A stretch of DNA of 64,000 bases from Nanobdellota archaeon (GCA_043806015.1 JAZDHH010000007.1:115698-179697), one strand, 5' to 3'. Positions 37,874 through 56,619 are shown, numbered from the stretch's first letter. Translations and numbers: made by a program. The notes: generated from the letters alone by a model not told the origin.

Positions 37874-37882
37874 GGTAACACC

Positions 37883-39157: not shown

Positions 39158-39953
39158 AGAGCTTCTCCAGCATGGGCAGCTTCAGCCCGGCGAAGGTCCG
39201 CATTCGTTCCCTGATTGCGTCGTCGCTGAAGCCCTTCTTCTTGAGCAGGGCGATCATGGTGTCGAGGTTCATGTCCGCTGTCGGGCCGCGGCATCCCCAG
39301 CACTCGAAGCCGCCGTTGACGCAGACCGCGTGGCAGCCGCCTGCCGTGACGGGGCCGAGGCACAGCCGGTCCTGCTCGAGCAGGCAGGCGTTGTTGTTCT
39401 GCCGGCATTCCTTGCAGACCGGGTCGTCGGGCAGCCTCGGGCTCAGGCCAAGGAGGGCTTGCTTGATGAAGTGCAGGATCTGCTTCTTGTCAGGGGGGCA
39501 GCCGGGAATCCAGAAGTCGACCGCGACATGCATGTCGATGGGCGTCGGCTCCAGATCCTCGATCTCCTCACGCTTCTTGTAGAGCAGGTGCTCGTAGTTC
39601 TCCTTGAGAGTGTAATGCCGGTACGCGGGGATGCAACCAGTGCAGGCGCATGCCCCCAGGGCGACGATTGCCTTTGCGTTCTTTCGCAGCCTCTGCAGCA
39701 CGGCGAGGTCGCCCTTGCTGGCCACCAGGCCTTCGACAAAGACGATGTCGAAGCTGTCCTCAGGGTTGACTTCCTTGATGAAGGGGAACGCCTTCAGGTC
39801 GACGAGCTGCACCAGGTCGAGGATCTCGTCCTCGTTGAAGATGACCGACAGCAGGCAGCCTGCGCAGCCCGTGAGGCCATACAGGCCGACCGTCGGCTTC
39901 TTTGCCATGGGTTTTGAGGGATTAGTCATTCTTGAAATCCTTGACTTCGTCAT
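39135..39953 (-). CDS. hydD: [NiFe] hydrogenase small (delta) subunit
   Basis: Contains GCAGC and several Cys clusters. Confidence 0.8.
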   Translation of the reverse strand: MTKSRISRMTNPSKPMAKKPTVGLYGLTGCAGCLLSVIFNEDEILDLVQLVDLKAFPFIKEVNPEDSFDIVFVEGLVASKGDLAVLQRLRKNAKAIVALGACACTGCIPAYRHYTLKENYEHLLYKKREEIEDLEPTPIDMHVAVDFWIPGCPPDKKQILHFIKQALLGLSPRLPDDPVCKECRQNNNACLLEQDRLCLGPVTAGGCHAVCVNGGFECWGCRGPTADMNLDTMIALLKKKGFSDDAIRERMRTFAGLKLPMLEKLYGKNNNP

Positions 39954-40722
39954 ACCTGAACACCGGGCCGTCGCGGCAGGTGTACTTTCCCCGGATCATG
40001 CAGTGGCAGCAGACGCCGACGGCGCAGTACATGAGGCGCTCGGCGCTGATGAAGATCTGGTCGTCATGGAACCCCTTGCGCTTGAGCTCATCGATGACCG
40101 TCTTCATCATGATGGGCGGGCCGCAGACGAAGGCGACCTTGCCCTCGTTGGTGAAGTCCGCCTGCTTCAGGGCCTCGGCGACGAACATGATCTTCGCGGT
40201 TGTGCAGGACTGGCCTTGCGGCACCTTGTCGACAGTGACCTGCATGTGATACTGCTTCTGCCACTCAGCCATCTCGCGGCTGAAGATGACGTCGTTCGGC
40301 GAGCGGTAGCCGAGGAAGAGCATGACCTCCCTGAAGTCGTCGCGGCGATGATCGACATAGTCGATGATGCCCTTCAGGGGGGCGACGCCGCAGCCGCCGC
40401 CGATGATGAGCAGGCTGTTGCCTTTGAGCTGCTCCATGGGGTATCCTTTCCCGTACGGGCCGCGGATGAGGAGCGTGTCACCTTTCTTGAGCCTGGCCAA
40501 GGACTTGGTGACATGGCCGACTTCGCGGACATTGAGCTTGAGGAATCGCTCTGATGCTGAGCAGATGGAGATGGGCGCCTCGCCGATGCCTGGCAAGGAT
40601 ACCTGGACGAACTGGCCCGGGTCATGCTTGACCTTCATGTCGACCGTGATCGTGAACGTGTCCTGGGTCTCCCTGAAGAAGTCCAGGACCGTGTACAACC
40701 GGGGGAGGTAAGGGTTATCCAT
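39922..40722 (-). CDS. hydG: Hydrogenase gamma subunit (FAD/NAD(P)-binding, 2Fe-2S oxidoreductase)
   Basis: Ferredoxin-NADP reductase-like fold (RGPYG, GGGCGVAP) with a C-terminal Cys cluster. Confidence 0.8.
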   Translation of the reverse strand: MDNPYLPRLYTVLDFFRETQDTFTITVDMKVKHDPGQFVQVSLPGIGEAPISICSASERFLKLNVREVGHVTKSLARLKKGDTLLIRGPYGKGYPMEQLKGNSLLIIGGGCGVAPLKGIIDYVDHRRDDFREVMLFLGYRSPNDVIFSREMAEWQKQYHMQVTVDKVPQGQSCTTAKIMFVAEALKQADFTNEGKVAFVCGPPIMMKTVIDELKRKGFHDDQIFISAERLMYCAVGVCCHCMIRGKYTCRDGPVFRYDEVKDFKND

Positions 40723-41686
40723 GGCGCATCCCGTTGATGATCCCGACGAAGTCTATCCTGGTGGGGCAGCCTTCGATGCAGCGGCCGCAGCCGACGCACA
40801 AGTTGGTGCCGTAGCGCTCCTTGAAGTACTGGAGCTGGTGGTAGATGCGGTGCTTGAAGCGCTGGTCGCGCTCCTTGCGGAAGACGCTGTTGCCAGCCAC
40901 CCTGGAGAACTCTTGCAGCTGGCAGCTGCTCCACTCCCTGCGGCGCACGCCTTTCTTGAGGTCTGCCATGCTCGGCTCATCATGCAGGCTGAAGCAGTAG
41001 CAGCTTGGGCACAGCGCGGTGCAGGCGGTGCAGCTCAGGCAGAGGTCCACGCCCTTCTTCCAGTCCGGGTGCTCGTAGAGCTGCTTGATATCTTTTATCT
41101 TGAGACGGTCTGCGTCTTTGATGACCTTCTGTTCAGGTGTGATGGTCTCTTGGGTGCTGCTGAAGAAGGCCTTGTGCTTGCTCACAAGGGCTTCGCCCTT
41201 CGTGGATCCCACTTCGACCAGGTAATGGTCGCTGCGGTCATGGTAGTTGAGGTCGAAGTAATCAACGAGGTCAAGTGAACCGCAGAAGCAGTAGGTCATC
41301 GGCTCCTTGCAGTGTAGGCCGATGAGCACCGTGTTCTTGCGGGCGGCCGTGTAGTATGGGTCTTTCGCGTCCTCGAGATAGACCATGTCCTGGTGCCTGA
41401 TCGCGTTGAGGTCGCAGCGCCGCAGCCCGAAGAAGGCCCGCGGCGGGCTCTCCAGCAGCGGCACTCGCATGCTGTTGCCGTCGAAGTGGAACAACACCTC
41501 ATGCTTCTTGAAGAAATGCTCCTTGATCGGGAAGAAGGCGTTGCGCTCGAGGAAGATGTCCTTCGGGTCCTTGACCTGGAGGAAGCGCACGACATCGCAC
41601 TCGACCGGCGCGATGAGCTCATAGCTACCCATGAGCTCTTTCAGGAACCCGTAAAACCTCTTTTTTTCCTGCCTGAAGACGTGCAT
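40715..41686 (-). CDS. hydB: Hydrogenase beta subunit (4Fe-4S protein)
   Basis: Carries CxxCxxCxxxCP-type motifs. It is the first gene of the hydBGDA order. Confidence 0.75.
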   Translation of the reverse strand: MHVFRQEKKRFYGFLKELMGSYELIAPVECDVVRFLQVKDPKDIFLERNAFFPIKEHFFKKHEVLFHFDGNSMRVPLLESPPRAFFGLRRCDLNAIRHQDMVYLEDAKDPYYTAARKNTVLIGLHCKEPMTYCFCGSLDLVDYFDLNYHDRSDHYLVEVGSTKGEALVSKHKAFFSSTQETITPEQKVIKDADRLKIKDIKQLYEHPDWKKGVDLCLSCTACTALCPSCYCFSLHDEPSMADLKKGVRRREWSSCQLQEFSRVAGNSVFRKERDQRFKHRIYHQLQYFKERYGTNLCVGCGRCIEGCPTRIDFVGIINGMRHG

Positions 41687-41820
41687 ACCTATTGTTCCGG
41701 GAGAGCAATGCCCTATTTAAATGTATTGCTTGCCTATGAAAAGACAAGAATAACGCATAACCCCTAAATAAGCCATAGCTTATGGAAACCTGCTGGAAAG
41801 TTTTAATAAGGTAGCCCAAT

Positions 41821-41915
41821 CACCCCGCCTTTTGACTATGGATGACATGCAAAAGGCACCCAAAAACTTCCGGTCAAAACCTATTTTCCTGCGAGACTTC
41901 ATGCGTTGCTTATGT
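41821..41915 (+). repeat. Copy A of an inverted repeat of about 95 bp (its partner is at 54841-54935)
   Basis: A core ttttgactatggatgacatgcaaaaggcacccaaaaacttccggtcaaaacctatttt is about 90% identical to the reverse complement of the 54841-54935 region. Confidence 0.8.
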
Positions 41916-41995
41916 CGCACGATATTTGAGAAAGATTTATATATATTTCGCACGTATATTAGTTAAAGTTTGCATTATTTTTACAAAAGAAGTCG

Positions 41996-44533
41996 ATGGA
42001 TGTGATAAAAAAGGCGAGGTTTATAATGAACATAAAACTTTGGATAGCATTAATTGCGTTGACATTGGTTGTTTTTGTTGTTTTAGGGGCGGTAAAAGTG
42101 CGGGACCTCGTGGGTGTGAGTCTCTCTTCACCGACAGGCGCCCAGAACATTTACATCGACGATTCGTTCACCATGACGTGCAGCCCTACGTATTCAGGCA
42201 ACGGCGGGCTTCCGGCCATAATCTACACGGCGCAGTGGTGCGACAATTCTGGCTGCTCAGCTAACGTGTACACCATCCAGGTCGGGACACCGACCTCCGA
42301 CCCGATATCATTAGTGACCGGCGCGGTCAATCCGAAGCAAATACTGGATTCCACGCCCTGGAGCTACTCTGTGTATGGGAGGAATAGCGGGACAGCGTAC
42401 ATAAGATGCAAGGCACAGGGCGGCAGCACCTGCAGCGGCGGATGCTACAGCACGATTAGGCAGGTCACGGTCCAAGAGGCCGGCGACCTACCCCCCACTA
42501 CAACATTAACTTCTCCAGCAGACCAGAGCCGGGTGTTGAATAGTTCTGTGACCTTCCAATGCGGCGCCAGTGACGACAACGGCCTGCAGAGCATGAGCCT
42601 GTATGGCGGCTGGGGCAGCGGATGGCACCTCGAGGAGACAAAGGCATTGAGCGGCTCATCGGACTCAGCCCAGTTCACCGTTTCGGGATTGGCAGACGGC
42701 ACCTACACATGGAACTGCGAGGCCAAGGACACGGCAAACCAGACGGATTTTGCGAACAGCAACTGGACGGTCAACATCGGCATGTTGAACAAGGATGACA
42801 TAATGATCAGCAGCGACTTCGAGATGGGCAACCTCATCAATGTCCAGCATGTTGAGGACCAGCAAGTCCCCTATAGGTATTATACTGCCCAGATCAACTA
42901 TTCAACGCAGTGGTTCTCCGACAAGCACTGGTGGTTCTCATTCTCCCTCGACAATGCCACTCAAAAGAGGGTGCACTTGGAGATCACGAATTGCAATAAC
43001 GCTGATGACACCCGCTTCGCGCACCTCATACCGGTGATCAGCTACACGGGCTTGCCAGGCGACTGGGTCAGGCTCCAGGGCAGCGAGTACAGCTATGATA
43101 GCGACAATAATAAGTACACGATAGATTTCACACCGACCGCCTCACCGGTTTACGTCGCGCCCATCCCCCATTACACCAACGCGATGTTGGCAAGCTATCT
43201 TTCCTCGAAGGCAAGCAGCCCTTATATGGAGACTTCCACGATTTCGGTGACACCTGAGGGAAGGAACGTCACCCTGGTCACCATCACCGACTCGAGCGTC
43301 AGCGACGAGGGCAAGTTCAAGGTCTTCCTCTTGGGAGGGGACCTGAATTCCGGAGAGCAGCAGAGCTCGTTCTATGCCCGGGGTTCCATTGAGTTTTTGC
43401 TTGATGAGTCCGACGAGACAGCGGCGGTCATTAGGAAGAACTACATCTTCCGCGTGGTGCCGGTGCAGAACCCGGACAGCACATATCATGGCATCTCCAG
43501 GTACACGCCTGTGAGGGACGGCATGCAGCACGATCTCAACAGGAACTGGGAGTCGGCCGAGCCGTACAAGCAGCCGGAAGTATGGGGTGGGATAAGATCA
43601 GCCATCGCTGACTGGCCTGCCGACGTCTTCATATCATACCATGGGGCGGTATTGGCTGACACGCAGTACTTCCTCTATCCCGGCGAATTGAGCTCTCAGG
43701 AGACGGCCCTGATGGACAGCATAGCCCAATACTGGAACGAGACCAGTGCCAGACTTTCCGGCTCGACCGTTGGCCTGAACTATGTCGAGATGGCCAACGC
43801 GGGCATCCTCTCACTGCTAATAGAGGTTTCGCCCAACCGGATCGTGCCGGGCGGTAACATCATAGACGAGCTGTATTGGATGGACAGCGGCAAGGATTTC
43901 GTCCTCGGCATATACAACTATCTCGGCGTTAACGACTCTGACCCGCCGTTGGTCGACGTTGTCGAGCCTTTGAACGGCAGCATTGTGAACATGACGGTGG
44001 CCATCAAGGCGGACGCCTCAGACGGGGGCAGCGGCATTCAAGGCGTTGAGTACAGGATCGATTCAGACAGCTATGTGCCGGTGGCTTATGTCGACCCGTA
44101 TTATGAAGCGGCATGGGACACAACCGCCGAGAGCAATGGCTTGCACACGATCACTGTGAGAGCGACCGACAACGAGAACAACATCAACACGGACTCGGTG
44201 CAGGTGAACGTGCAGAACTCGGTCCCCGATCTGAACGTCACCGTGGTGACGGACAAGTCCCAATACACGAGCGGAGAATGGGTGTCTTCCATCACGACGG
44301 TGAGAGACGGCCAGGGCAACCCGGTGTTCGGCGCAGACCTGACGGTTGTGATATACCGTTCGGATCTAACACAAGCCAAGGCATGCATCGGGACGACGCT
44401 GGGAGACGGCACCTACGAATGCCGCTACAGGATCGGCAGGAGCGATCCCCTAGGCACGTGGACAGTCGAGTCGGACGCAACCGAGACAGGCTATGGCCCT
44501 GGCCACGGCGAGACTACCTTCCAGGTAGTCTGA
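41996..44533 (+). CDS. Secreted multidomain protein with Ig-like (Big-type) domains flanking an M14 carboxypeptidase-like domain
   Basis: A signal/TM N-terminus, then ...VVPVQNPDS..., DLNRNW and ...ISYHGAV... (M14 landmarks), then C-terminal Ig-like domains. An alternative start is at 42026. Confidence 0.6.
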   Translation: MDVIKKARFIMNIKLWIALIALTLVVFVVLGAVKVRDLVGVSLSSPTGAQNIYIDDSFTMTCSPTYSGNGGLPAIIYTAQWCDNSGCSANVYTIQVGTPTSDPISLVTGAVNPKQILDSTPWSYSVYGRNSGTAYIRCKAQGGSTCSGGCYSTIRQVTVQEAGDLPPTTTLTSPADQSRVLNSSVTFQCGASDDNGLQSMSLYGGWGSGWHLEETKALSGSSDSAQFTVSGLADGTYTWNCEAKDTANQTDFANSNWTVNIGMLNKDDIMISSDFEMGNLINVQHVEDQQVPYRYYTAQINYSTQWFSDKHWWFSFSLDNATQKRVHLEITNCNNADDTRFAHLIPVISYTGLPGDWVRLQGSEYSYDSDNNKYTIDFTPTASPVYVAPIPHYTNAMLASYLSSKASSPYMETSTISVTPEGRNVTLVTITDSSVSDEGKFKVFLLGGDLNSGEQQSSFYARGSIEFLLDESDETAAVIRKNYIFRVVPVQNPDSTYHGISRYTPVRDGMQHDLNRNWESAEPYKQPEVWGGIRSAIADWPADVFISYHGAVLADTQYFLYPGELSSQETALMDSIAQYWNETSARLSGSTVGLNYVEMANAGILSLLIEVSPNRIVPGGNIIDELYWMDSGKDFVLGIYNYLGVNDSDPPLVDVVEPLNGSIVNMTVAIKADASDGGSGIQGVEYRIDSDSYVPVAYVDPYYEAAWDTTAESNGLHTITVRATDNENNINTDSVQVNVQNSVPDLNVTVVTDKSQYTSGEWVSSITTVRDGQGNPVFGADLTVVIYRSDLTQAKACIGTTLGDGTYECRYRIGRSDPLGTWTVESDATETGYGPGHGETTFQVV

Positions 44534-44566
44534 TTTTTTCTTTTTTATTCCATTTTTTATTCTCTC
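44534..44566 (+). terminator. T-rich archaeal-type terminator
   Basis: tgattttttcttttttattccattttttatt immediately after the stop codon. Confidence 0.45.
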
Positions 44567-45185
44567 AGCGACTTAAGGGGATCATTCCCATAATGGATCA
44601 ATGCTTATTCCTAATCCTGGAAGCTTCAACGCCGAGGGAAAAGCCCTGCGGCCCCCCTATCGCCTTTGCAGCTGCATTTACCGTCAGCGAGCCGATGCAA
44701 TCTTCCCGGCCAAAAAGCAGGCATGGAGACCGGCCTTACAGCAGGGTGTATGCGAAGGCGAGAGATGGCGATGCGGCCCATCGCCCCTAAGGTTCACAGG
44801 AGGGTAAGCTTGCAGATCATGCGCGAAGAACATTCCACTGAGAGGTTAGAGCCAGAATTCCCGCAAAGCAATGGGCGTGAAAAGTGGTGATCGCGCCATA
44901 AAAAAATACCAAGAACTTGGGTAAAGGGATGGCATGCATAATCAGGCTCTATTGAAGGTCTCGGGTCCTATCAACTAGCCCGTGTTCTGGATTAAGGGCC
45001 TATTGCGTGAGACTCTATCCCTCACAAGATGCCGACTTCCTTCGTAGAAGCATTGAAAAGGGCAGATTATGCCCGAACAACATCGGCGCAACAGGCCGGC
45101 AGCGCCTTTACCCCTCCATAACTTGACCGCACACCCATAATCCGAATCCGCCTGATTACCCATGATCTGCTCTCCCGCAGCCATG

Positions 45186-45250
45186 AAGGACCCAAAAAAA
45201 AAGAGGGAAGAGGAAAGGCACGCGCATCCCACCACCCGGCAGCGATGCCT
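45186..45250 (-). terminator. Hairpin plus T9 terminator after the minus-strand secreted-protein operon
   Basis: On the minus strand, GGAAGGCA...TGCCTTTCC is followed by tcttccctcttttttttt. Confidence 0.4.
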
Positions 45251-45255
45251 TCCCC

Positions 45256-47226
45256 TCAGGTACAACAGCATTTCACAGCTTCATCATATCCTACAGGGAA
45301 CTCTTCATTACAGGTGGTTATGGCAACCGGGCCACTAGGAGATTCTGCACAGTTGTCGTAAAAATAATAAATTCCGGCAGTCAGCACGCTTCCATAATCA
45401 AAATCGTAACATCCTTCCACGCAAGTCAACCCAAAGCCTGAACAGATTTCATCACAGTCCCATTCAGCGCCAACATCAACACAATCTGTCAACCTGCCCA
45501 TTCTTGGCGTGCTCTCGATAAAAGAGTCCGCCTGCTCAACAATGTCATCATAATACAGGCTGTAATTCTCCCAGAAGAAAGACCAATTATAAAGCGGGCT
45601 CATAAAGGTGAAAGCATCGCCGGCAGTCAGATAATTGAAAGCCCATGCCTGACTTGAAGGGGAATAAGCGACCCTATCGAACCGGCCATTTGACATGACA
45701 CCATCAGCCATGACTGTGTCGACGACCGTGTCATTATAGATGAACAGGTCATAACCCGTGCTCAAAATGCCCTCAACAATAGCCACCCTCGCCTCAGCCT
45801 CATCCGTCACGCCATACGTATACCACACCTTAAGCAAAACCTTGCCCTTGGAAGTAACGCCATAAGAAGCCTCCCAAATCTGGCCTGCCTCATACAAGGA
45901 ATCATCCCTCATCGCGATAAAATAGCTCAGATTCTCGCGGACACTCCGGGTAGCATTCAAAGCAGCGGAATCCGAAAGATCATCAGCCAACACAACCCAA
46001 GCATCACAAGGATAATTATACCCGCAAGCATCCTCCCAAATCACACTCGCACCTGTGTTGTGACCATCATCCCAATCACCAGCACTGGTCCCCGGACCGG
46101 CATTAAGCCCGTTGCCATCCTCAACTACCTCATTGCAACCTGAAAAGAATCTGTCCCTCCACTCAGAGGGCTGCGAATCCGCAACAGTGACAACATCCAA
46201 AAAAATCGACACGTTAGTCACATTAGCATCCTCAGGCAGCGAAGACAGGTTAAAAGTGAAAAAACCGCGCTTCTCAACGCCACTGCCACTCACATTTCTG
46301 CCCACGAGAGCATTAGTGTTATAATAAGCCTCATAATAATAAGAAAAACCCGTACTGACCTTCTTGATATAGCCTGACCGCTGCCCAGTATAATCAACCG
46401 TCACCTCACCAGCTAAAGCAGCGTCAATCCACCACATGCGAACAACCTCAGTGCCACTCCAGCCGCTGGGAGCAACGCCATCATTCATCGCGGCCATCAC
46501 CAACACGTCACCATCACCCTCATACCGCAGCCTCAGCACGTCCTCGCCGAACACGAAATGGCCTCGCTTAGAAACAGAGTCCCTTATGAATATCTGCGTC
46601 ACGCCATCAACCTCGAACTCCTCTGTGCTGTCAAGAAAGAAAGTGTCGCAAGACTCCACTCCACCATCCAAAAAGCAGTAGAAAACCTCGTCAACAACCG
46701 TGTCATTCTCAATCTGGACATCATCAAACTCCCAAACGTACCATAATGCATTATGGAACGAAAAAGCCCTGTCAGAAGAAACAAAAAAGCTGTTTTCCAT
46801 GTACCGATCAAACCTTTCCTGGCCGCGAAGCCAGCCAAAACACGGCCCGAAATCACAGTTTACGACACTCTGGTTCCAGAAGGTCAGGTTATCGCTCTGG
46901 ACACTGAGATTATAATCATCCAGCACACTCTCGCTAAAATAGGTGAAATGGCCACCCGCATTGTAATACGCAAGGCCAAACCGGTGAGTCAGCCACTGGG
47001 CGCGCCCCTTCGCATCATCCAAGTCAAAACCGTTGAAAAACTGCGAATAGCCGCTCGCAGCATCCTGCCAGATGTTGGCGCGGTCAGCGCCGTCAGGATT
47101 CCCATTCCACGTGTGGAGGTAATCGCCATCATCAACAAACTCAAAGCCCACAGGCGAAGTCGCAACAACAACAGGCAGCAACAACACCAGCAACAAACCC
47201 GTAATAGCGTGTCTCATCATCATCAC
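45256..47226 (-). CDS. Secreted protein with a Cys-rich C-terminal domain
   Basis: Signal peptide MMMMRHAITGLLLVLLLP, a 656-aa protein ending ...CNEEFPVGYDEAVKCCCT. Confidence 0.5.
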   Translation of the reverse strand: MMMMRHAITGLLLVLLLPVVVATSPVGFEFVDDGDYLHTWNGNPDGADRANIWQDAASGYSQFFNGFDLDDAKGRAQWLTHRFGLAYYNAGGHFTYFSESVLDDYNLSVQSDNLTFWNQSVVNCDFGPCFGWLRGQERFDRYMENSFFVSSDRAFSFHNALWYVWEFDDVQIENDTVVDEVFYCFLDGGVESCDTFFLDSTEEFEVDGVTQIFIRDSVSKRGHFVFGEDVLRLRYEGDGDVLVMAAMNDGVAPSGWSGTEVVRMWWIDAALAGEVTVDYTGQRSGYIKKVSTGFSYYYEAYYNTNALVGRNVSGSGVEKRGFFTFNLSSLPEDANVTNVSIFLDVVTVADSQPSEWRDRFFSGCNEVVEDGNGLNAGPGTSAGDWDDGHNTGASVIWEDACGYNYPCDAWVVLADDLSDSAALNATRSVRENLSYFIAMRDDSLYEAGQIWEASYGVTSKGKVLLKVWYTYGVTDEAEARVAIVEGILSTGYDLFIYNDTVVDTVMADGVMSNGRFDRVAYSPSSQAWAFNYLTAGDAFTFMSPLYNWSFFWENYSLYYDDIVEQADSFIESTPRMGRLTDCVDVGAEWDCDEICSGFGLTCVEGCYDFDYGSVLTAGIYYFYDNCAESPSGPVAITTCNEEFPVGYDEAVKCCCT

Positions 47227-47232
47227 CCCCTC

Positions 47233-50200
47233 CTAAGAAGACACTGAGACCGAAATGGTCTCAGCATCCTCATAATCATCATTCCAAGCTCGGGCAGTAA
47301 CATTATAGTATCCGTCAACAGAATAATTCGTGACCACGTACACGAGCCTTGTGCTGTTGGCAGGCAGGTCAAAATCAGTTATGCCGGTGTCCAAGGTGAC
47401 GCGCAAAAAAGGATGCTGGGTGTCATAATAAGACTCCTTGGAACGCGTCGAGACATAATCACCGGCGTTATCGGCATTCGACTCCGTAACGACATAAATC
47501 GAGAGATTGTTGGTGCCAAGCTCAACCTCAGCCTTCAGCATGTCAACGACCGAAAAGTTCAACGCCGACGGCGCGTCGCCGTCATCATACCTCAACCAAG
47601 AACCATAACCGGACAAAGAATATCCTACGGGATATAGCGGCCTGTTGTCCCACGTCACCGACGACTCATTCCATTCCGAACCGCTGATATTATACTCGGG
47701 GAAAGGATAAACCCTGTAAGGCGTCAGATTAACCCACTCACCCGCCTCCAAATTGTCCTCATAGGCATACAAGAAAAGCTCAGCAGCCACGATATCATCT
47801 CCATCATCAACAAAATCATAAAGGCTGGAAATGTCAAACTTGTACATGCCCCTTCGATCATTACCGCTATACGCCCCGAAATGCGCATAAGGCTCGCTGC
47901 CAAAATTGCCGCTCGAATCCGCCGACTTCACCATCGCGTCATCAGACGGCAAAAAAGTCAAGTACTTCGAGACAAGCTTCTCATCAGTATCCAGGCTCCA
48001 CTTCACGCCATCAACACTCTCATTGCCATCATTAACAATCCTGAACGAAAAAACGACCCGTTCGTTCCCCCTATTTTCCACTTCCCACAAATCGCGGACA
48101 TCAGGAAGATTGGCATAAAAATAACCCGACATGTTCACCAAAGTGCCATTGGAATGATGGACCCAGAAAGTGAAATTATGCCTGCCTGAATCTGTAGGGA
48201 CGAACCCATTATAATAGATATCAGTATTAGAAGGATTGGATTCCAAATTCAGCAAGGTGCTATAGTTCCTCCTGGAAGAATCAGGAGGCGAACTCACCTC
48301 GACGACAACCTCATCAACTCTCGCCGGACAAGGCCAAGAAGGCGGCGAGACATTGACAGAGAGATTCACTATTCCCCCCTCAAGATCGCCGTGATGAGAC
48401 GCATTGACACTATTGATCACCGCAGAACGGCTCTTATTCAGGCAGACATAGGAATAATAAACCTCGCGGTCAGCGTGCGTCCAGATATAATCCAGCGTTG
48501 TATTGGGATACTCGATCATCGCAGGATTGCTGTCATCCGCGGCATGATTTGTCAACCTCGAATGATCCCAATAAGTATTAACACCATCATTAGGATTTGT
48601 CGAATTTGAATGCACAATCTCATTGTTCCCATATGCCTCATCCTGGCCATCCGCATAATACATCAGATGGATATTGCTAGCCCGATCATAAGAAGCCTGA
48701 ACACGCCAAGCATCATAATCCCAATCTTCCTTGTATAAGTAAATCGCGCCACCTGGGCGCCAAGTTTCGCCGTAATCAGACGAATTGGTAAACCAGATAT
48801 AGTATCCATGGTTGGGGTTCATTTTTTTGTGCCATGCAACAACAAGGTGGTCGGGAGAATTTGGATCGATCGCCAAAGATGGCCGATAAGCGTCAGTAGC
48901 GGTAGTAACATCCTCCGAAATCGCTTCCTCATCCGACCACACATTCCCCTCATCTTCAGATTTGATGAACATTATCCGGTGATGGCCTCCAGATTGCAAA
49001 TAATCATCCACATCTTCATAGGCTGCATATAACAAAAACGCATCCCTGTCAGCAGCGATTGTGGGCGCATAATCCGAAAAGACATCATCAGTCAAGTTTT
49101 CCCACTCGTGATACCAATGAGTACCATGAGACTGGGACCCCCTGAATAGGATCTCAGCGCTATCAGTCTCCAAAGGCGGGTAAGGCCACCGGGCGATGAC
49201 ACTCATCATAACACTAGATACTGACAATGAAGGCCACCAGAGATTAGAGCTGTCGTTAGTCCTATTCCAATCGCTATAACCGTCCTCCCAATCACTGTGA
49301 TACGTACCATTCAGGGTGCAGGCCACCAGGAGGTCAACGCCATTTGTGCCTAAAGCCGGAAAAAGACAAACCTGCGTTTCAGGAGCAATGTCAGGATCCT
49401 CAATCTTCTGCACAGTCCAGCTGCCGCCATTATCAAGCGAATAGGCATGGAAACCCTCAGCACCAATGTCGTCAAATCCCCCCTTGGAACAGTTGGAAAA
49501 AACCGCGTGCACATTCCCATTACCATCCCGGACAATGCTCCGCTTGGCGTTATAATTGGTCATGTTATCACAATAAGTATAACTGGTATAAAGCTCCCTC
49601 ACCTTCGACTTCAGATAGATGTCCAGAAAAGGCCTCTGATCCCTATAATCAGTTTCCTTCGAGCGCGTCTTCACAAGATCAGTGGAACTCATACTCCCCG
49701 CGGCCGTGAAGGCCTTCACAAGAACAGACAGGTTGTCATCACCATCACCGACCTCATCTTTCACCATGTCAGTAACATTAAAACTCATCCAAAAAGGCGT
49801 TTGCCCATCAGCAGTGTCCCCGCCAGCTATAACCCAGCTATCCTCAGCAACACCATTGTATTCGTGATCAGAATCATCAGGCCTATTATTCCAGGTCACC
49901 GACGAATCATCCCACTCCAAATCGCTGACATTATAATCCGGATAAGAATACACGTGATGCGCATCCAAACGGATAGCCTCATCATCCGCCAAAGTGTCAT
50001 CATAAGCCCACAAATTGAGCTCGGCATACACGACATCGTCCTCATCAGCGCCGAAAATGCCATCCACCTGCGCCAGGTCAAACTTATACATGCCAAAATA
50101 CCTTGACGAGTCAGCTGTAACAGAGCAATAATTAATATAAGCCTCCCCACCATAATTTACGTAAGGAGCATCCTCATAAAGCAGACTATCATCCATGACC

Positions 50201-50925
50201 TCCCCGGCAAAAGAACCGTATTCGGCAAGCTGCAGGCGATGCCTCGCGACCGTGGGATCATCAACAGTGACAAGCAGATAAGGTTTGCCGGACATGCCAG
50301 TTTCCGATGAACGCGTTTTCACATAATTATCATAATCCGGGCTCCCGGAATCAGTCACGGCCTTGACAAGGAAACTGACATTACGGTCATCTTGAAGCAT
50401 TTCCTCAACAACCGCGCCAGTAACAGTGAAATTCATCCACTGCCTGCCATCACCATTACTATAAACCCAGCTGTCCAAAACACTGCTGTGCTCAGACTCA
50501 AAATCAGGGCGGTTAAGCCAATTGACACGAATCCCATTCCACTCAACACCATCAACAGAATAATCAGGATAAGAATACACGTGATACGCATTCAACTCGA
50601 CAGCCTCGCCGATGTCCAAAGTCTCATCATAAGCATAGATAAAAAGAACAGCCTCCGTCACATCAGCCGGATCAGCATCCAGCCCTGTCAAATCAAACTT
50701 GTACATGCCGTAACGCTGATGTTCCTCAGCAGGACAATAATGGATAAAGGCTGACTCGTAAAAACTGGTGCCAGGCTCATCCTCCTTCAGCATGGTATCA
50801 TCCAAAACATCGTCACGCAGCGGAATAGAATACACCGCACCACAAACAGAGCCAACACCGGACAGCAGGAAAACAACCAGCACAAAAAACATCAGAAACC
50901 TATAGAGAACCCTAGACGTCGCCAT
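47233..50925 (-). CDS. Secreted 1230-aa mosaic protein with three DNRLRE/CBM96-like modules and BNR (Asp-box) repeats
   Basis: Signal peptide. Three repeats of ...GMYKFD(L/I)...(V/I)(N/T)W.NRP.... BNR motifs SLDNGGSW, SEDEGNVW and SSDYGETW. Confidence 0.6.
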   Translation of the reverse strand: MATSRVLYRFLMFFVLVVFLLSGVGSVCGAVYSIPLRDDVLDDTMLKEDEPGTSFYESAFIHYCPAEEHQRYGMYKFDLTGLDADPADVTEAVLFIYAYDETLDIGEAVELNAYHVYSYPDYSVDGVEWNGIRVNWLNRPDFESEHSSVLDSWVYSNGDGRQWMNFTVTGAVVEEMLQDDRNVSFLVKAVTDSGSPDYDNYVKTRSSETGMSGKPYLLVTVDDPTVARHRLQLAEYGSFAGEVMDDSLLYEDAPYVNYGGEAYINYCSVTADSSRYFGMYKFDLAQVDGIFGADEDDVVYAELNLWAYDDTLADDEAIRLDAHHVYSYPDYNVSDLEWDDSSVTWNNRPDDSDHEYNGVAEDSWVIAGGDTADGQTPFWMSFNVTDMVKDEVGDGDDNLSVLVKAFTAAGSMSSTDLVKTRSKETDYRDQRPFLDIYLKSKVRELYTSYTYCDNMTNYNAKRSIVRDGNGNVHAVFSNCSKGGFDDIGAEGFHAYSLDNGGSWTVQKIEDPDIAPETQVCLFPALGTNGVDLLVACTLNGTYHSDWEDGYSDWNRTNDSSNLWWPSLSVSSVMMSVIARWPYPPLETDSAEILFRGSQSHGTHWYHEWENLTDDVFSDYAPTIAADRDAFLLYAAYEDVDDYLQSGGHHRIMFIKSEDEGNVWSDEEAISEDVTTATDAYRPSLAIDPNSPDHLVVAWHKKMNPNHGYYIWFTNSSDYGETWRPGGAIYLYKEDWDYDAWRVQASYDRASNIHLMYYADGQDEAYGNNEIVHSNSTNPNDGVNTYWDHSRLTNHAADDSNPAMIEYPNTTLDYIWTHADREVYYSYVCLNKSRSAVINSVNASHHGDLEGGIVNLSVNVSPPSWPCPARVDEVVVEVSSPPDSSRRNYSTLLNLESNPSNTDIYYNGFVPTDSGRHNFTFWVHHSNGTLVNMSGYFYANLPDVRDLWEVENRGNERVVFSFRIVNDGNESVDGVKWSLDTDEKLVSKYLTFLPSDDAMVKSADSSGNFGSEPYAHFGAYSGNDRRGMYKFDISSLYDFVDDGDDIVAAELFLYAYEDNLEAGEWVNLTPYRVYPFPEYNISGSEWNESSVTWDNRPLYPVGYSLSGYGSWLRYDDGDAPSALNFSVVDMLKAEVELGTNNLSIYVVTESNADNAGDYVSTRSKESYYDTQHPFLRVTLDTGITDFDLPANSTRLVYVVTNYSVDGYYNVTARAWNDDYEDAETISVSVSS

Positions 50926-51031
50926 GATACCATCCTCCCCCCCTTTTTTTATAAAAAACCAAGAGAGGTTTCATCATTCCGCAAGTAATATAAAAACCTT
51001 TCGAAAAAAGAACAAGGGAAAAAAAAAGGAA

Positions 51032-51589
51032 TCACCTATACAAAGCCTTGATCGCGCCCCAACTGTCGGACTGCAGGGGAGTGGACCCGGTCACAGACTG
51101 CAACTCAACCCTCAGGCCGCCGTGCAGCAACGCGTCAATGATCCGGACGAGGTCTTCCGGGATCACTTCATCACTATTCACGCCGTTGAGGTAAACGCTT
51201 TGCACAGGAACAGGGCTGTTGCCGAATGCCCCGGTCTCCAGGATTTTCTGTTCCGATGGCTGGTTCACGCTTACATGGCTAAAAGGATAGGCCATCAGCC
51301 CGGGGTTGAGGTCCTGCCTCAGCTGGACCCCCAAGCATTCCACGAGGCCGCCTGCGCCTTGGTCCCTGAACAGGTACGTGAAGCCGCTGTTGTGCTCGAC
51401 GGGCTCCAGCCCATATGCACCGAGCGCTTCATAGAGGCTCGCAAGCAGATCATGCTGCTCCATCATGGCCCCTGCGACTGAAGTTGTGGGCTTCACCCCA
51501 GAACCTTCAACTGCTGCAGCACCTACAGGCGCCGCTGCCAAAAGTCCGGTCAAAGCCAAATGTTTCATCATAGGTTTCATTCTGACCAA
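51032..51589 (-). CDS. Small secreted protein
   Basis: Signal peptide, 185 aa. Its start overlaps the stop of the upstream paralog. Confidence 0.4.
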   Translation of the reverse strand: MVRMKPMMKHLALTGLLAAAPVGAAAVEGSGVKPTTSVAGAMMEQHDLLASLYEALGAYGLEPVEHNSGFTYLFRDQGAGGLVECLGVQLRQDLNPGLMAYPFSHVSVNQPSEQKILETGAFGNSPVPVQSVYLNGVNSDEVIPEDLVRIIDALLHGGLRVELQSVTGSTPLQSDSWGAIKALYR

Positions 51590-52656
51590 CCTCCCTCTAC
51601 CATCGAAGTCAAGATCTTCCCGCCGCCACCGGACGGCGGAATGACTAGGCCTCCCACATGAACATGCAGATCCCTGATGTTGTTGCTCTCATCATACTCG
51701 TCGATGAGATCCTCATAGTCAACGAAGACCTCTGGAAAGTAATCGCCCGAGGCAGGATAGCTCCAGAGCTCGTACACCGTCATGAAATCGCCAGCAGCCA
51801 GGGAAATCGGCTGGTTATTGTACAGATAGGCGGGCTCACCCTGCGTGGCGACCTTGTAATAGATGTCCTCGAGGTCTTCATCGCCGAGGTTGCTGAGCCT
51901 GAACTGGAACAGGATGTCATCGCCGGCAACAGGGTTTTGGGGATAGACCGCGCTGAAATCGGTCACCGCAACATCGCTGCCAGAGCCCTGATAATGTATC
52001 CGGAGTAATGGGCGCTGGTCATCGTGGATGGACTCCTTCGAGCGGGTCTTCAAATAGTCGCCGGAGCTGTGGCCGCTGATCTGATCGGTGACTATGAAGA
52101 CAGACAGGTTGTGGTCGCCCTCCATGAACTCTGTCTTGACCATGTCGGTGACATCGAAAGGAAGCCAGACATCCGGAGAGTTATTCCCGCAGAACACAGT
52201 GGAATCCGAAGGGGCCGTGTCATATTCTGAAGAGGACGCCGGCCTGTTGCCCCACGTCACCGAATACTCGTCCCACTCGAGGCCGCCGATCTGATAGGCC
52301 GGATAGGAATAGATGTGATGGGAGGACATGGTGACGCACTCGTCATCCCTGTCCAAGGTCTCATAGTAGGCATACAGGTTAAGCTCGGCGCTGATGATGT
52401 CATCGGCATTGCCAATCGCGGTGTACAGTTGGGACAGGTCGAATTTGAAAAGCGCCTGCCTCTGCGAATAAAAAGCGGAGCAGAAATGGACAAAGGTCTC
52501 ATGCCCGTAATTGGCGTCGGGATACCTCGCCCATAGCTGCGCATCGTCCAGGTTCTCTGTGTCAGCGTCCTGCAGCACCAGCGTCCCGGCAACAGCGATG
52601 CCTGAACAGGACAGCAACGCCGCCACCATCACCACAAACACCGCGTAAGCATTCAT
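51577..52656 (-). CDS. Secreted DNRLRE-like plus CARDB-domain surface protein, paralog 1
   Basis: Signal peptide, a YKFDLSQLY...VTWGNRP...KTRSKESIHDDQRPLL module, a CARDB-like stretch (...SNLG...E.DESNN...) and a C-terminal GGGGKILTSMVEGGWSE tail. Confidence 0.6.
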   Translation of the reverse strand: MNAYAVFVVMVAALLSCSGIAVAGTLVLQDADTENLDDAQLWARYPDANYGHETFVHFCSAFYSQRQALFKFDLSQLYTAIGNADDIISAELNLYAYYETLDRDDECVTMSSHHIYSYPAYQIGGLEWDEYSVTWGNRPASSSEYDTAPSDSTVFCGNNSPDVWLPFDVTDMVKTEFMEGDHNLSVFIVTDQISGHSSGDYLKTRSKESIHDDQRPLLRIHYQGSGSDVAVTDFSAVYPQNPVAGDDILFQFRLSNLGDEDLEDIYYKVATQGEPAYLYNNQPISLAAGDFMTVYELWSYPASGDYFPEVFVDYEDLIDEYDESNNIRDLHVHVGGLVIPPSGGGGKILTSMVEGGWSE

Positions 52657-53720
52657 TCGGAACCACCTTCCATCATGGTAAACAATTTTCCGCCGTGATG
52701 GTGGAAAGGCAGGACGCTCCCGACCTGCACCATCAGATTCCGGTAGTTGTTCGACTCATTGAACTCGGCAATGGTGTCCCCGTAGTCCGCGACAACCTCC
52801 GGATAAAAGATCCCCGGGTTGGAATAGCGCCAATTCTCATAGACGATGATGAAATCGCCCGCATCCAAAGAGATCGGCTGGGAATTATAAAGATGGGGAG
52901 GCTCGCCGCGGGTGGCTACCCGGTAATACACGTTTTCAAGGTCTTCAGTGCCAAGGTTGCTGAGCCTGAACTCGAAAAGGATGTTATTGCCCACGACAGG
53001 ATTGCTGGGATACACCTTGCTGAAATCGGTCACCGCAACATCATTGCCGCCGGCCTCATAGGTGATGAGCAGAAAGGGCCGCACGTCGGAAAAATAGGAT
53101 TCCTTTGACCGAACCCTCAAAAGGTCGTCAGGGCTCGTGCCTTCGATTTCAGATGTCATCATGTAGATGGAGACGTTCATGTCACCCTCCGAGAATTCCT
53201 GCCTCACCATTCCGGTCACGTTGAACGGCAGCCACTCATTCAATGCCATGCCGTCGCAAAAGAGGCCTGTGTCTTCAGCAGCGGGATTGTACTCAGAAGG
53301 CAGGACTGGCCGGTTCCCCCATGTCACGGAAAGCTCGTCCCACTCGAGGCCCTCGACCTGGTATGAGGGGTAGGAGTAGGCGTGGTGGGCGGACATCTCG
53401 ACGCACTCATTCTCTTCGAAAGTCTCCTCGTATGCGTAGAGGTAAAGCTCGGCGCTGCCTATCTGGAAGGCATCGTCTATGAGGGGATAAAGCTGTGACA
53501 GGTCGAACTTGTACATGCCGAACCTCTGATAGTCCGGGGAAGAGCTGAAGAGGATATACGGCTCAGTGCCGTAGTTCTCATCAGGGGTCCACTCCCTGAG
53601 CATTGTGTCAGCAAAGGTCTCTGTGTCGGCGTCCTGCAGGGCCAGGGTGTAGGTGAAAGCCAACGCTGGAGCGGTGCACACCATGAGGACAATCATGAAT
53701 AAGACAGACTTTTCCGTCAT
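52653..53720 (-). CDS. Secreted DNRLRE-like plus CARDB-domain surface protein, paralog 2
   Basis: Same architecture as paralog 1, with a HHGGKLFTMMEGGSE tail. Confidence 0.6.
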   Translation of the reverse strand: MTEKSVLFMIVLMVCTAPALAFTYTLALQDADTETFADTMLREWTPDENYGTEPYILFSSSPDYQRFGMYKFDLSQLYPLIDDAFQIGSAELYLYAYEETFEENECVEMSAHHAYSYPSYQVEGLEWDELSVTWGNRPVLPSEYNPAAEDTGLFCDGMALNEWLPFNVTGMVRQEFSEGDMNVSIYMMTSEIEGTSPDDLLRVRSKESYFSDVRPFLLITYEAGGNDVAVTDFSKVYPSNPVVGNNILFEFRLSNLGTEDLENVYYRVATRGEPPHLYNSQPISLDAGDFIIVYENWRYSNPGIFYPEVVADYGDTIAEFNESNNYRNLMVQVGSVLPFHHHGGKLFTMMEGGSE

Positions 53721-54766
53721 ATAGACTCACCCCCATCCATAACAGAATGATACTTGCCGCCGCCATGCAGGGGTGGCGGAGGAACAGCCGTACCGATGAG
53801 GACTGGCAAGCGTCTCATGTTGTTGGTCACATTGAGGTCCTCATAGTCGACGATGACCTCAGGCATGAAAGATCCAGCCGAGCCGTAGCTCCAGAGCTCA
53901 TACACATCCACGAAATCGCCCACCGCCAGAGAGATAGGCTCTGTGTTGGAGAAAAAAGGGGGCTCACCCCTCGTGTTCACCTGATAATAGATGCCCTCAA
54001 GGCCAGTTGTGCCAAGGTTGCTGAGCCTGAACCGGAACAGGATGTCATCGCCGACAACAGGGTTTTGGGGATAGACCGCGCTGAAATCGGTCACGGCCAC
54101 ATCGCCGCCGCCGCCCTCATAGGTTATCAATAGATAAGGACGCTGGTCCTCATGGATGGACTCCTTCGAGCGGGTCTTCACATAGTCGCCGGAGCTGTGG
54201 CCAATGAACTCGTCAGTGGCTATGTAGATGGATACATTCTTGTCTCCTTGCAGGAACTCTTGCTTGACCATGCCGGTCACATTGAAAGGCAGCCACACCT
54301 CAGAAGGCATGCGATTACAGAACAGGATCATGTCTTCAGGAGCAGGATTGATGGCGGATGATACCGGCTTGGTGTCCCAAGTCACAAGCATCTCCTCCCA
54401 CTCGCTGCCGTTGACCTGGTAGAAGGGATAAGAATAGACGTGATGGGCGAACATGTTGACGCACTCGTCATCGTCCAAGGTCTCATTGTAGGCATAGAGC
54501 AAGAGCTCCGCGCTGAGGATATCATCGGCATCATCAACAAGGCCGTAAAGGTACGCCAGGCCGAACTTGTAAATCCCCTGTCTCTGCGAAGAGGGGGCAG
54601 AGCAGTAATTCACGAACGGCTCGCTCCCATAATTCTGACTGTGATACTGCTCTCTTACCTGCACATCTCCGAGGTCCACTCTGTCGACATACTGCAGCCC
54701 ATAAGCAGGCGCAAATCCCGCGCAGGCAAATGCACAAATCAATAGCATAATAGCCCGTATATTCAT
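53717..54766 (-). CDS. Secreted DNRLRE-like plus CARDB-domain surface protein, paralog 3
   Basis: Starts at MNIRAIMLLICAF; the longer track ORF that begins at 54916 runs through the repeat element. Carries a HGGGKYHSVMDGGESI tail. Confidence 0.6.
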   Translation of the reverse strand: MNIRAIMLLICAFACAGFAPAYGLQYVDRVDLGDVQVREQYHSQNYGSEPFVNYCSAPSSQRQGIYKFGLAYLYGLVDDADDILSAELLLYAYNETLDDDECVNMFAHHVYSYPFYQVNGSEWEEMLVTWDTKPVSSAINPAPEDMILFCNRMPSEVWLPFNVTGMVKQEFLQGDKNVSIYIATDEFIGHSSGDYVKTRSKESIHEDQRPYLLITYEGGGGDVAVTDFSAVYPQNPVVGDDILFRFRLSNLGTTGLEGIYYQVNTRGEPPFFSNTEPISLAVGDFVDVYELWSYGSAGSFMPEVIVDYEDLNVTNNMRRLPVLIGTAVPPPPLHGGGKYHSVMDGGESI

Positions 54767-54840
54767 TGTATCAACCCGATTATACCTATTAAGTGATGAA
54801 AAAGTAAGACTCCTTAATAAATGTTTTGTTGAAGAAGGTA

Positions 54841-54935
54841 GCGAGATGGGTAATGCGTGAGGTTTCGCATAAAAATAGGTTCTGACCGGAAGTTTTTGGT
54901 GCCTTTTGCAGGTCATCCATAGTCAAAAAGCGGTG
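54841..54935 (-). repeat. Copy B of the inverted repeat of about 95 bp
   Basis: Reverse complement of the 41821-41915 element. It lies in the upstream leader of paralog 3. Confidence 0.8.
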
Positions 54936-55377
54936 TGATGAGATTACAAGGGGCATAGCGTTCCAGCTGGTTTCCATAAGCTTGAGTTCACAAGTTGCAA
55001 TGGCAGGTATTCCACGTTTATACAGAGTACGTACTCAGCGAATAAAACGCTTGTTCGCCTCGCATAACCTCTTGTGCGGGTAGTCCTTTGAGATGCTGTA
55101 GGTTCTCCTTCATCAACAAGGTTGGTCGTCCGCTCCGCTTGTGCATCGGGAGCGGCAAGCCGCTCTTTTGACGCTGAATCCAAAGAAAACAGCCGGCTGA
55201 ATGCAATCGACGAGATTCGCGATCCCTTGCTTCTTTTTGCCAGGTGCCCATTTGTTCACAGCTACGAACTCACTTTTACGCAACCGCCTCGGCCCTGACG
55301 CTTCATCTTCCTGATCGAGAAGAGGGATATTAAAAAGCTTCAAAACATTTATAATCCCTAGGCCTATAAAACTCGCT

Positions 55378-56619
55378 ATGAAAAGGGGCGCGAACCAGGT
55401 CGACTGGGCCATCAGCATGTTCATCTTCCTCCTGTACCTCTTCTGGTTCTTCCTGCTCATCCAGCCGAGGATCAACCCAACGAAGGACGTCAACACCGTC
55501 TTGTCATTCGTCAAGGAGGGCTTCCTCGATGACACCCAATGGGAAGTGCAGAAAGCGCCGATCATCATCCGAGCCAATGATTCCGAGGTCAACGTTCCCA
55601 TCAGGGTCGCTGCACCGAACTGGACCCTCGCTCAGATGTCGCTGAACCCGACGGTCTTCCTCGCCTTGGACGAGGCCGAGCTGGTCTTCATCGGCAACAT
55701 CAGCCCAAGCAAGAGCTATGCCCTGGTGCATTCGGCAGCAGAATATGGCAACCCGTATCCCTTGCCGGCGGTCATCGCCGACGACCTGGACGTCACCGTG
55801 CCTGGCCAGGGCGTCAAGGCCTCTATGAACAGCTCCCTGCCAGGGGTCATCTCCTACAACGGCACCCGGCTGTACAGCCTCGACCTGCTCCAGAACAACC
55901 AACCCGTACCCCGGACGGAGAGCGAGATGAACATCACGCCGATCTTCGCCAAGTACAAGCTCATCGAGGACGGCTGGAACATCAGCACCTATTTCTACAT
56001 GCAGCGCCGCGAGGTTTGGTTCACGCTGCGCTACGGCACCGCCCGGCCGAGGCTCACCCTCACCGCCCAGCTCTATCCGTATCCGGACTATTTCGCCAAC
56101 AACCGCGACCAGGGCAGTCTCAACTATACCGAGGAGACCTGCGCCAACCTGTCCACAGACAGCATCGATCTCTACGGCGGATCTGGGTTCCAGCTCCTTT
56201 TCGACCGGGAAGTGAACATCTCCCTCTGCGCTGAGAACTCCTCTCGCCTGTTCGTCAACGCCACGTTCTTCAACGTGAGCGAGTTCCGCTTCATCATGCA
56301 TGAAGGCGATTATCAGAATCGCGAGACCAGGCTGCACAAGCATGTCGCCCTGCTCGGCTCCTTCGAGACCCTGACCGGCGTCCGGTGGGAGAATGTTTCC
56401 GCCGTGAACGCGACAAGCCATACGGCCCTCAAGCAGCGCTGGTCCATCCCACTCGAGCGGGACTTCTCTTTCATCATCAAGAATGCCTCGCAGACCTTTG
56501 TGGAGCACAACATGACCTCTCCCCCGAAGACGCAGGTCTACGCGGTCACCGAGCCGCTCCTGGTCCTCGGGCAAGATGCAAGCACCAACAGCACATCAAT
56601 CACCTATCGCGCATGGTAA
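55378..56619 (+). CDS. Archaeal type IV pilin-like surface protein, heavily N-glycosylation-sequon-rich
   Basis: N-terminal MKRGANQVDWAISMFIFLLYLF resembles a class III (prepilin) signal peptide. The 413-aa protein has about 18 N-x-S/T sequons. Confidence 0.5.
   Translation: MKRGANQVDWAISMFIFLLYLFWFFLLIQPRINPTKDVNTVLSFVKEGFLDDTQWEVQKAPIIIRANDSEVNVPIRVAAPNWTLAQMSLNPTVFLALDEAELVFIGNISPSKSYALVHSAAEYGNPYPLPAVIADDLDVTVPGQGVKASMNSSLPGVISYNGTRLYSLDLLQNNQPVPRTESEMNITPIFAKYKLIEDGWNISTYFYMQRREVWFTLRYGTARPRLTLTAQLYPYPDYFANNRDQGSLNYTEETCANLSTDSIDLYGGSGFQLLFDREVNISLCAENSSRLFVNATFFNVSEFRFIMHEGDYQNRETRLHKHVALLGSFETLTGVRWENVSAVNATSHTALKQRWSIPLERDFSFIIKNASQTFVEHNMTSPPKTQVYAVTEPLLVLGQDASTNSTSITYRAW

Follow-up and report, generated by a model that had tools for sequence, protein, structure and literature searches.

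Inverted copies of a non-coding sequence, a possible duplicated regulatory module, at the edges of an island of secreted-protein genes in a Nanobdellota genome

A 64,000 nt stretch of the genome of a Nanobdellota archaeon (GCA_043806015.1, JAZDHH010000007.1:115698–179697), referred to here as the window, contains two inverted copies of a non-coding sequence, copy A on the plus strand and copy B on the minus strand. The copies lie at the edges of a 13 kb island, with one plus-strand gene and seven minus-strand genes between them, and each precedes the predicted promoter of one of the two convergent transcription units of the island. We read the repeat, with about even confidence, as a duplicated cis-regulatory DNA module made up of a 22 bp block and a 69 bp core upstream of both promoters. 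The best-supported view of the feature is that it is a lineage-specific case of a known type, namely upstream control DNA common to co-regulated promoters. A shared regulatory role was among the roles put forward in a first-pass annotation of this DNA, and it is the best reading given that the copies precede both inward-facing transcription units.

The repeat pair was recovered by gapped BLASTN as 41777–41918 (+) and 54982–54841 (−), aligned over 143 columns with 79 % identity (E value 7.5e-29). Both the inverted repeat reported in the first-pass annotation and the exact sequence given there for its core are confirmed. The extent of the similarity had been underestimated, as homology reaches further outward to a second block (41777–41798 and 54982–54961). 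From the outside inward, each copy consists of this outer block, a variable spacer, the core and a decayed tail. In copy A, the outer block AGCTTATGGAAACCTGCTGGAA (41777–41798, +) is identical at 21 of 22 positions to the reverse complement of 54961–54982, while the 20 nt spacer (41799–41818, +) matches copy B at 6 of 20 positions, which is chance level. The 69 nt core (41819–41887, +) aligns with 54939–54872 with 64 of 68 positions identical and one 1 nt indel (92.8 % over 69 columns), and the tail (41888–41920, +) retains 21 of 33 positions (64 %), with transitions making up 8 of its 12 differences. The corresponding parts of copy B, all on the minus strand, are the outer block at 54961–54982, a 21 nt spacer at 54940–54960 that holds no promoter-like site, and a 68 nt core at 54872–54939 and tail at 54839–54871, both placed by alignment with copy A. 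The core indel is at 41861 (GGCACC[C]AAAAA) and the core substitutions are C/A, C/T, A/C and A/G. The copies nowhere match exactly over more than 17 nt and, inward of the tail, similarity is lost except for the recognition element for transcription factor B (BRE) and TATA box, which recur at nearly equal distance.

The sequences TTTTGACTATGGATGAC[A/C]TGCAAAAGGCACC and AAAAACTTCCGGTCA[A/G]AACCTATTTT from the core were each found twice in the window, once per strand, where shuffled sequences predict none, and the outer block likewise had two matches in the window and none in shuffles. The same sequence is therefore found at both inward promoters and nowhere else within the window. An assembly artefact was considered and is ruled out, because exact identities of at most 17 nt are shorter than any assembler k-mer and cannot mislead an assembler.

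The copies mark the limits of an accessory island that encodes lineage-specific secreted proteins and has housekeeping flanks, since the third-codon GC content drops from about 0.85 to 0.51–0.74 exactly at both copies. The bordering genes have values of 0.855 (hydB) and 0.843 (55378–56619), and the seven island genes scored, those being the plus-strand gene and six of the minus-strand genes, have values of 0.736, 0.533, 0.508, 0.672, 0.717, 0.716 and 0.660. The compositional edge proposed in the first-pass annotation is thus where it was said to be. Its figures for overall GC content were about 50 % inside and about 62 % outside, and the actual values are 51.8 % for the island, 61.4 % for the left flank and 57.7 % for the right flank.

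As the window is archaeal, archaeal promoter rules apply to it. Promoters were scored using a matrix of 14 columns that was refined on 13 promoters from the window outside the island, with training sites scoring between 10 and 19. The regions upstream of genes in the window have an A-rich BRE and the sequence TTTAWATA beginning 28–33 nt before the ATG, which indicates that most of the mRNAs would be leaderless, and in leaderless genes the matrix 14-mer mostly starts 35 nt before the ATG (range −33 to −40). Only 28 positions in the 64 kb, counting both strands, score 14 or more. Between 41600 and 55400, eight positions (two of them, 41796 and 41797, overlapping) score at least 12, and all are intergenic and plausibly situated. 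Two of these are the predicted promoters of the inward-facing units. The plus-strand gene, which encodes an M14 peptidase, has the BRE/TATA AAAGATTTATATAT at 41931–41944 (+), with a score of 17.0 that is within the training range, and the minus-strand unit has AAACATTTATTAAG at 54813–54826 (−), with a score of 17.4. Both are near consensus. They lie inward of the core, at a distance of 44 nt in copy A and 46 nt in copy B, and 65 and 60 nt, respectively, from the ATG codons at 41996 and 54766.

The description of the repeat as the upstream leader of the inward genes in the first-pass annotation does not fit with these positions, as both promoters sit between the repeat and the start codon. In archaea, the centre of the TATA box is 26/27 bp before the transcription start (PMC5512572). 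This spacing, together with a matrix start at about −35, places the predicted starts near 41966 and 54791, and relative to them the core occupies about −79 to −147 and the outer block about −168 to −189. Because the predicted starts are at least 79 nt downstream of the core, the repeat would be untranscribed, and on these predictions it is upstream promoter DNA rather than a leader. The typical binding site of an archaeal activator is upstream of the BRE (PMC5512572).

The conservation of the repeat is at the level of nucleotides and not of protein, as had been proposed, since the indel disrupts every frame across the core. All open reading frames (ORFs) that cross the core switch frame at the indel, including those beginning MDD(M/L)QKAP and MTCKRH and an ORF on the reverse strand, and the products of the two MTCKRH ORFs, at 41842–42264 (+) and 53717–54916 (−), diverge after it. 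A small conserved ORF spanning the repeat was rejected because of this frame shift. The duplicated 5′ coding region in the same frame that the first-pass annotation had set against its own reading was also not seen, as no frame survives the indel.

Conservation is also unevenly distributed. The core (64/68) differs significantly from the tail (21/33; Fisher p = 2e-4) and from the spacer (8/20; Fisher p = 7e-7), and a permutation test on the best 68 nt window gave p = 0.00035. At 94 %, identity in the core exceeds that in codon positions 1–2 (68–75 %) and position 3 (49–60 %) of the adjacent tandem paralogues in the island. The tail, with its preponderance of transitions, resembles neutral decay and its identity is comparable to that of the paralogue third positions. 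Measured against the tail and the paralogue codons, the uneven conservation points to purifying selection or gene conversion acting on both blocks. Of the two, gene conversion appears to be the less economical explanation, because the blocks are parted by a 20 nt spacer at chance level and no exact match is longer than 17 nt.

If the repeat is a regulatory module, one or more DNA-binding proteins, perhaps a transcription regulator that is multimeric or bends DNA, would recognise both blocks, and the two units would be switched jointly, with the M14 peptidase on one side and an adhesin-like operon of DNRLRE/CBM96 proteins on the other. One point in favour of co-regulation is that the products of both units have signal peptides and belong to the same compositional island. 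The candidate recognition elements would be the motif TATGGA[AT][AG][AC]C, found once per block (four hits compared to 0.5 expected), and a dyad, GCCTTTTG-N15-CAAAAGGC, inside the module that is weaker in copy B, though with two copies both are inseparable from shared ancestry. The module may have reached both promoters via an old duplication of regulatory DNA, as the first genes of the two units are unrelated, and the inverted arrangement would follow from the fact that the two units face each other.

Several observations weigh against a regulatory module. There are only two copies, from which no binding motif is definable, and family scans of the ORFs in the window recognised no regulator gene near the island. 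The core is not directly upstream of the BRE, with a poorly conserved 44–46 bp in between, and its uninterrupted run of 69 conserved bases is longer than is usual for a simple operator. What looks like constraint could also have arisen by gene conversion between the copies, and the promoters and start sites are predictions. Activators usually accompany weak promoters (PMC5512572), and both promoters here are near consensus. Our confidence in a regulatory module is held at the level given above by the distance of the core from the BRE, by its length and by how close both promoters are to consensus.

Sensitive BLASTN searches with both copies found no third or partial copy in the window and no match in 19 related loci. 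In exact pattern searches of DNA, the first half of the core had no matches in GTDB species genomes, JGI metagenomes or IMG/VR, and the second half had none in JGI metagenomes or IMG/VR. The island proteins were also examined. In word-indexed searches, the 349 aa protein, one of the tandem paralogues, returned only its two paralogues and a 1230 aa protein returned only itself. The M14 protein returned one partial protein at 60 % identity and one at 36 %, with the remaining matches spanning only about 12 % of its length. The partial protein with 60 % identity is on a 1.9 kb contig that is broken inside the gene and is without upstream DNA. An exhaustive HMMER search of 1.84 billion representatives using the 349 aa protein produced 185 matches, the best of which outside its own contig were 32–43 % identical. 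Relatives of hydB, the gene bordering copy A, were found at 41–60 % protein identity; these keep only the hyd operon, with synteny beyond the operon lost, and they lack the island but are too distant for that absence to inform. To judge from these searches, the island proteins are lineage-specific.

The repeat might instead be functionless, a remnant of an old inverted promoter duplication that occurred while the island was being assembled, with the two blocks kept alike by occasional gene conversion. The island is indeed a patchwork, with third-codon GC contents of 0.51–0.53 in two genes and 0.66–0.74 in five as well as tandem paralogues, and the decay of the tail to 64 %, mostly by transitions, would be expected of such a remnant. 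Since the units begin with unrelated genes, the copying of the regulatory DNA must have been a separate event. We nevertheless consider this explanation unlikely. Two blocks around a spacer at chance level are hard to produce by conversion tracts, an exact identity of 17 nt is a poor substrate for recombination, and neighbouring paralogues of about the same age or older are less conserved at their coding positions than the core is.

It is quite unlikely that the core is transcribed and acts as RNA, either in a long shared 5′ leader or as a two-copy small RNA gene, although 69 nt of contiguous conservation is more typical of RNA than of an operator. Two overlapping promoter-like sites on the plus strand in the spacer of copy A, 41796 (41796–41809; score 14.4) and 41797 (score 14.1), point into the core, and transcription from the first would begin where the core begins. 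However, nothing at the matching place in copy B scores above 6, and in the matrix scan upstream of the copy B core, promoter-like sites scored no more than 6 in sense orientation and no more than 5.9 in antisense orientation. A further site at 41948 (41935–41948, −; score 14.4), which faces outward across the repeat in antisense orientation to the M14 promoter, was also found only in copy A, so a promoter for a small RNA at a conserved position was not found. The best promoters are downstream of the repeat.

Tests of RNA structure gave a similar picture. Of the four core substitutions, two (C/T at 41829 and A/G at 41877) fall in alternative helices and would be tolerated there as G-U pairs on the gene-sense strand, but by our own estimate two wobble-compatible transitions would be expected by chance about one time in four. 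Fold z-scores were between −1.5 and 0 for the 144 nt unit and for the 81 nt core, on both strands and in both copies. RNAalifold kept only a 9-pair hairpin, GCCUUUUG.C/G-CAAAAGGC, with one G-U pair and no compensatory pairs, an analysis that has low power with two sequences. No Rfam match was found at the gathering score in the whole window, or even at E ≤1 in either repeat region, and no tRNA was found by ARAGORN. The helix that the first-pass annotation had pointed out, TTTTGAC...GTCA[A/G]AA, does exist as sequence and is the minimum-energy fold in copy B only. In RNA form (UUUUGAC/GUCARAA) it competes with GCCUUUUG-N15-CAAAAGGC for one U-run. The z-scores and the lack of an Rfam match argue against a structured RNA, and the compensatory change that had been thought possible was not found by RNAalifold in the aligned copies.

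The last alternative, also raised in the first-pass annotation, is that the copies are recombination or mobility sites. In that case they would either delimit a segment able to invert or form the terminal inverted repeats of a non-autonomous mobile cassette by which the island arrived. The inverted copies are found exactly where third-codon GC content goes from 0.85 to 0.74 or less, the only proteins more than 43 % identical to the 349 aa island protein in the exhaustive HMMER search were the paralogues on its own contig, and relatives with the hyd operon lack the island; those relatives, being only 41–60 % identical and with synteny lost, say little on this point. We consider this explanation very unlikely. 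As had been reported, no island ORF matches a transposase or integrase family, and no transposase, integrase or recombinase/invertase family was matched in the island or the scanned flanks (Pfam, ORFs at about 25–63.6 kb apart from those at 35.7–39.9 kb, of which two at 37007–39157 were scanned with NCBIfam only). There is no target-site duplication outside the outer block (...AAGCCAT on the left and TGAGTTC... on the right), and conservation is highest not at the tips but 40–110 nt further in and is interrupted by the variable spacer. Because promoters and genes lie together inside the repeats, every promoter would stay joined to its own genes after an inversion, which would switch nothing and be functionally neutral. 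An undescribed DPANN element made up of the core and block, whether an RNA (a long leader common to both units, or a small RNA) with alternative helices (GCCUUUUG/CAAAAGGC versus UUUUGAC/GUCARAA) or the site of a recombinase encoded outside the region that flips or exchanges the 13 kb cassette, is given a similarly low probability.

Several other candidates were rejected. Partial matches to a C/D-box small RNA, a group II intron end, an origin box resembling the origin recognition box (ORB) and a dif-type site were noted by eye, each in one copy only. The copies also do not have the features of a diversity-generating retroelement, as the substitutions are not confined to adenines, both copies are intergenic and there is no reverse transcriptase.

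The plus-strand unit of the island contains the gene for the secreted M14 carboxypeptidase-like protein (41996–44533, +), which includes Big_7 and MG2 domains detected by Pfam, is identical to MFH1133429.1 and has an alternative start at 42026. This gene is followed by an oligo-T terminator with three T6 runs (44534–44560, +). The minus-strand unit begins with three tandem paralogues of 359, 355 and 349 aa (51577–54766, −), each with a signal peptide and a DNRLRE/CBM96 module found by Pfam. They share 55–58 % amino acid identity and give rise to direct repeats spaced about 1060 nt apart, and CARDB was detected by Pfam in the 359 and 355 aa paralogues only. An ORF scan identified a 185 aa ORF (51032–51589, −) that has a signal-like N-terminus and belongs to no family. 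The 1230 aa secreted protein (47233–50925, −; third-codon GC 0.51; MFH1133431.1) has three DNRLRE/CBM96 modules, and the 656 aa secreted protein (45256–47226, −; third-codon GC 0.53) has no Pfam family. A T9 terminator for the minus-strand units (45194–45202, −) follows the stop codon of the gene for the 656 aa protein. Both terminators were read in the sequence, and oligo-T termination is established in archaea.

All of the island products have an N-terminal hydrophobic signal-like segment, in agreement with the signal peptides previously attributed to the inward genes. Island proteins are identical to the NCBI records MFH1133429.1, MFH1133431.1 and MFH1133435.1 from a Nanoarchaeota archaeon metagenome-assembled genome (MAG). 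The NCBI models for MFH1133429.1 (811 aa) and MFH1133435.1 (320 aa) start at an internal GTG (regions 41996–42100 and 54680–54766) and are without the signal segment, which is restored by the ATGs at 41996/42026 and 54766. The DNRLRE/CBM96 family is locally expanded, in the paralogues (51577–54766) and the 1230 aa protein (47233–50925), and is otherwise almost absent from public data. Weak Pfam matches to a TGF-beta propeptide also fall on the DNRLRE/CBM96 module. It was in archaeal cell-surface proteins that the DNRLRE domain was first described (PMC2447325).

An internal BRE/TATA, AAAGGTTTTTATAT (50988–51001, −; score 15.9), precedes the gene for the 1230 aa protein, which also has a Shine-Dalgarno-like run, GGGGGAGG, before its ATG at 50925. 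The island promoters are 60–76 nt before the ATG (41931–41996, 50925–51001 and 54766–54826), unlike those of most genes in the window, and this spacing implies leaders of 25–41 nt for the three promoters. Between the convergent terminators there is a gap of about 626 nt (44565–45190) with a GC content of about 55 %, in which no convincing ORF, promoter-like site, Rfam match or similarity to elsewhere in the window was found. On the other side of copy B, a 360 nt non-coding stretch (54983–55342) separates it from the promoter of the gene at 55378 (55343, +; score 16.0), and this stretch has no third-position GC signal, Rfam match or similarity elsewhere. No pseudogene remnants were found in either gap.

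The island is adjoined on the left by a group 3b sulfhydrogenase operon (37883–41686, minus strand), and the hydB promoter (41726, −; score 17.3) is only 51 nt away from copy A. On the far side of the island is a membrane protein gene of native composition, followed by those for archease and RtcB. The other genes in the flanks encode archaeal SecD, CTP synthase and CysRS. The product of this membrane protein gene (55378–56619; third-codon GC 0.84) is membrane-anchored and without a Pfam family, and its N-X-S/T sequons, at 4.4 per 100 residues, are denser than in any other protein of the set examined. Five genes elsewhere in the window also have a low third-codon GC content (0.40–0.56), namely those at 2536–3387, 7564–8232, 10051–10476, 12080–12847 and 22539–23012, of which one is a member of the inositol monophosphatase family and the other four match no Pfam family. 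As native genes mostly have values of about 0.8–0.9, these look like further small accessory insertions. The longest ORF at 32707–33954 (−) has a GC content of 0.87 in the first position and 0.62 in the third and no family match, and the real gene there is probably in another frame or on the other strand.

The nearest HydB proteins in the GTDB species representatives are three at 60 % identity, one from a Candidatus Woesearchaeota MAG and two from MAGs labelled as bacteria. Most of the other HydB matches are from Woesearchaeota/Nanoarchaeota or from MAGs labelled as uncultured Methanosarcinales. We take the source of the window to be a DPANN archaeon that is Nanoarchaeota/Woesearchaeota-like. 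The GC content of the window is 57 %, compared to 27–52 % at the loci of the nearest HydB relatives, many of which are in Woesearchaeota/Nanoarchaeota MAGs. For this group the archaeon seems unusually rich in GC, and it has a complete sulfhydrogenase operon.

If the repeat is a regulatory module, an uncultured DPANN archaeon would have placed unrelated secreted proteins, a peptidase and a glycan-binding, adhesin-like set, under common control, and would have gained this control by copying one upstream region before both units of an accessory island. The probable site of action of the island proteins is the cell surface, at which such organisms come into contact with hosts. To our knowledge, almost nothing is known about the regulation of transcription in these lineages, and for this reason the strongly conserved block could be used as bait for its binding protein. 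As a single two-copy case without relatives, the general significance of the repeat is limited for now, and it would be of more than modest importance only if transcript or read data were to reveal an RNA or an inversion.

Among known systems, the leaders and riboswitches in Rfam share with this repeat a conserved non-coding block before genes and possible alternative helices, but the block described here is upstream of the predicted promoter and has no Rfam match, significant fold energy or covariation. Invertons, such as those of Hin, Gin and Cin and of Bacteroides, likewise have inverted repeats around a segment that is tied to surface proteins. The repeats of invertons are 14–30 bp and near-perfect, have a promoter or the 3′ portions of genes between them such that inversion alters expression, and are accompanied by an adjacent recombinase gene. 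Those found here are 143 bp and imperfect, with both promoters and genes inside them and no recombinase found. The island itself resembles other accessory islands of surface proteins in its atypical composition, housekeeping flanks, signal-peptide proteins with adhesion or glycan-binding modules, and lack of close homologues. Such islands are usually without a bounding inverted pair of promoter-upstream sequences, and the edges here are regulatory DNA, if read correctly, rather than tRNA genes or att sites.

The closest parallels are with the DNA bound by EarA at the fla promoter of Methanococcus maripaludis and by Ptr2 at the rb2 promoter of Methanocaldococcus jannaschii, and with the ara-box of Sulfolobus (PMC5512572). 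The EarA boxes are 6 bp and the operators are about 20 bp and abut the BRE, whereas the 69 bp block found here ends 44–46 bp from the BRE. Unlike in the EarA, Ptr2 and ara-box cases, there is a second block a further 20 bp out, the promoters are near consensus, and binding is something that we only infer. What the repeat has in common with all three is its place in non-coding DNA upstream of the BRE/TATA, the presence of the same sequence at promoters of surface-structure or regulated genes that are, or here would be, co-regulated, and short internal repeats (PMC5512572).

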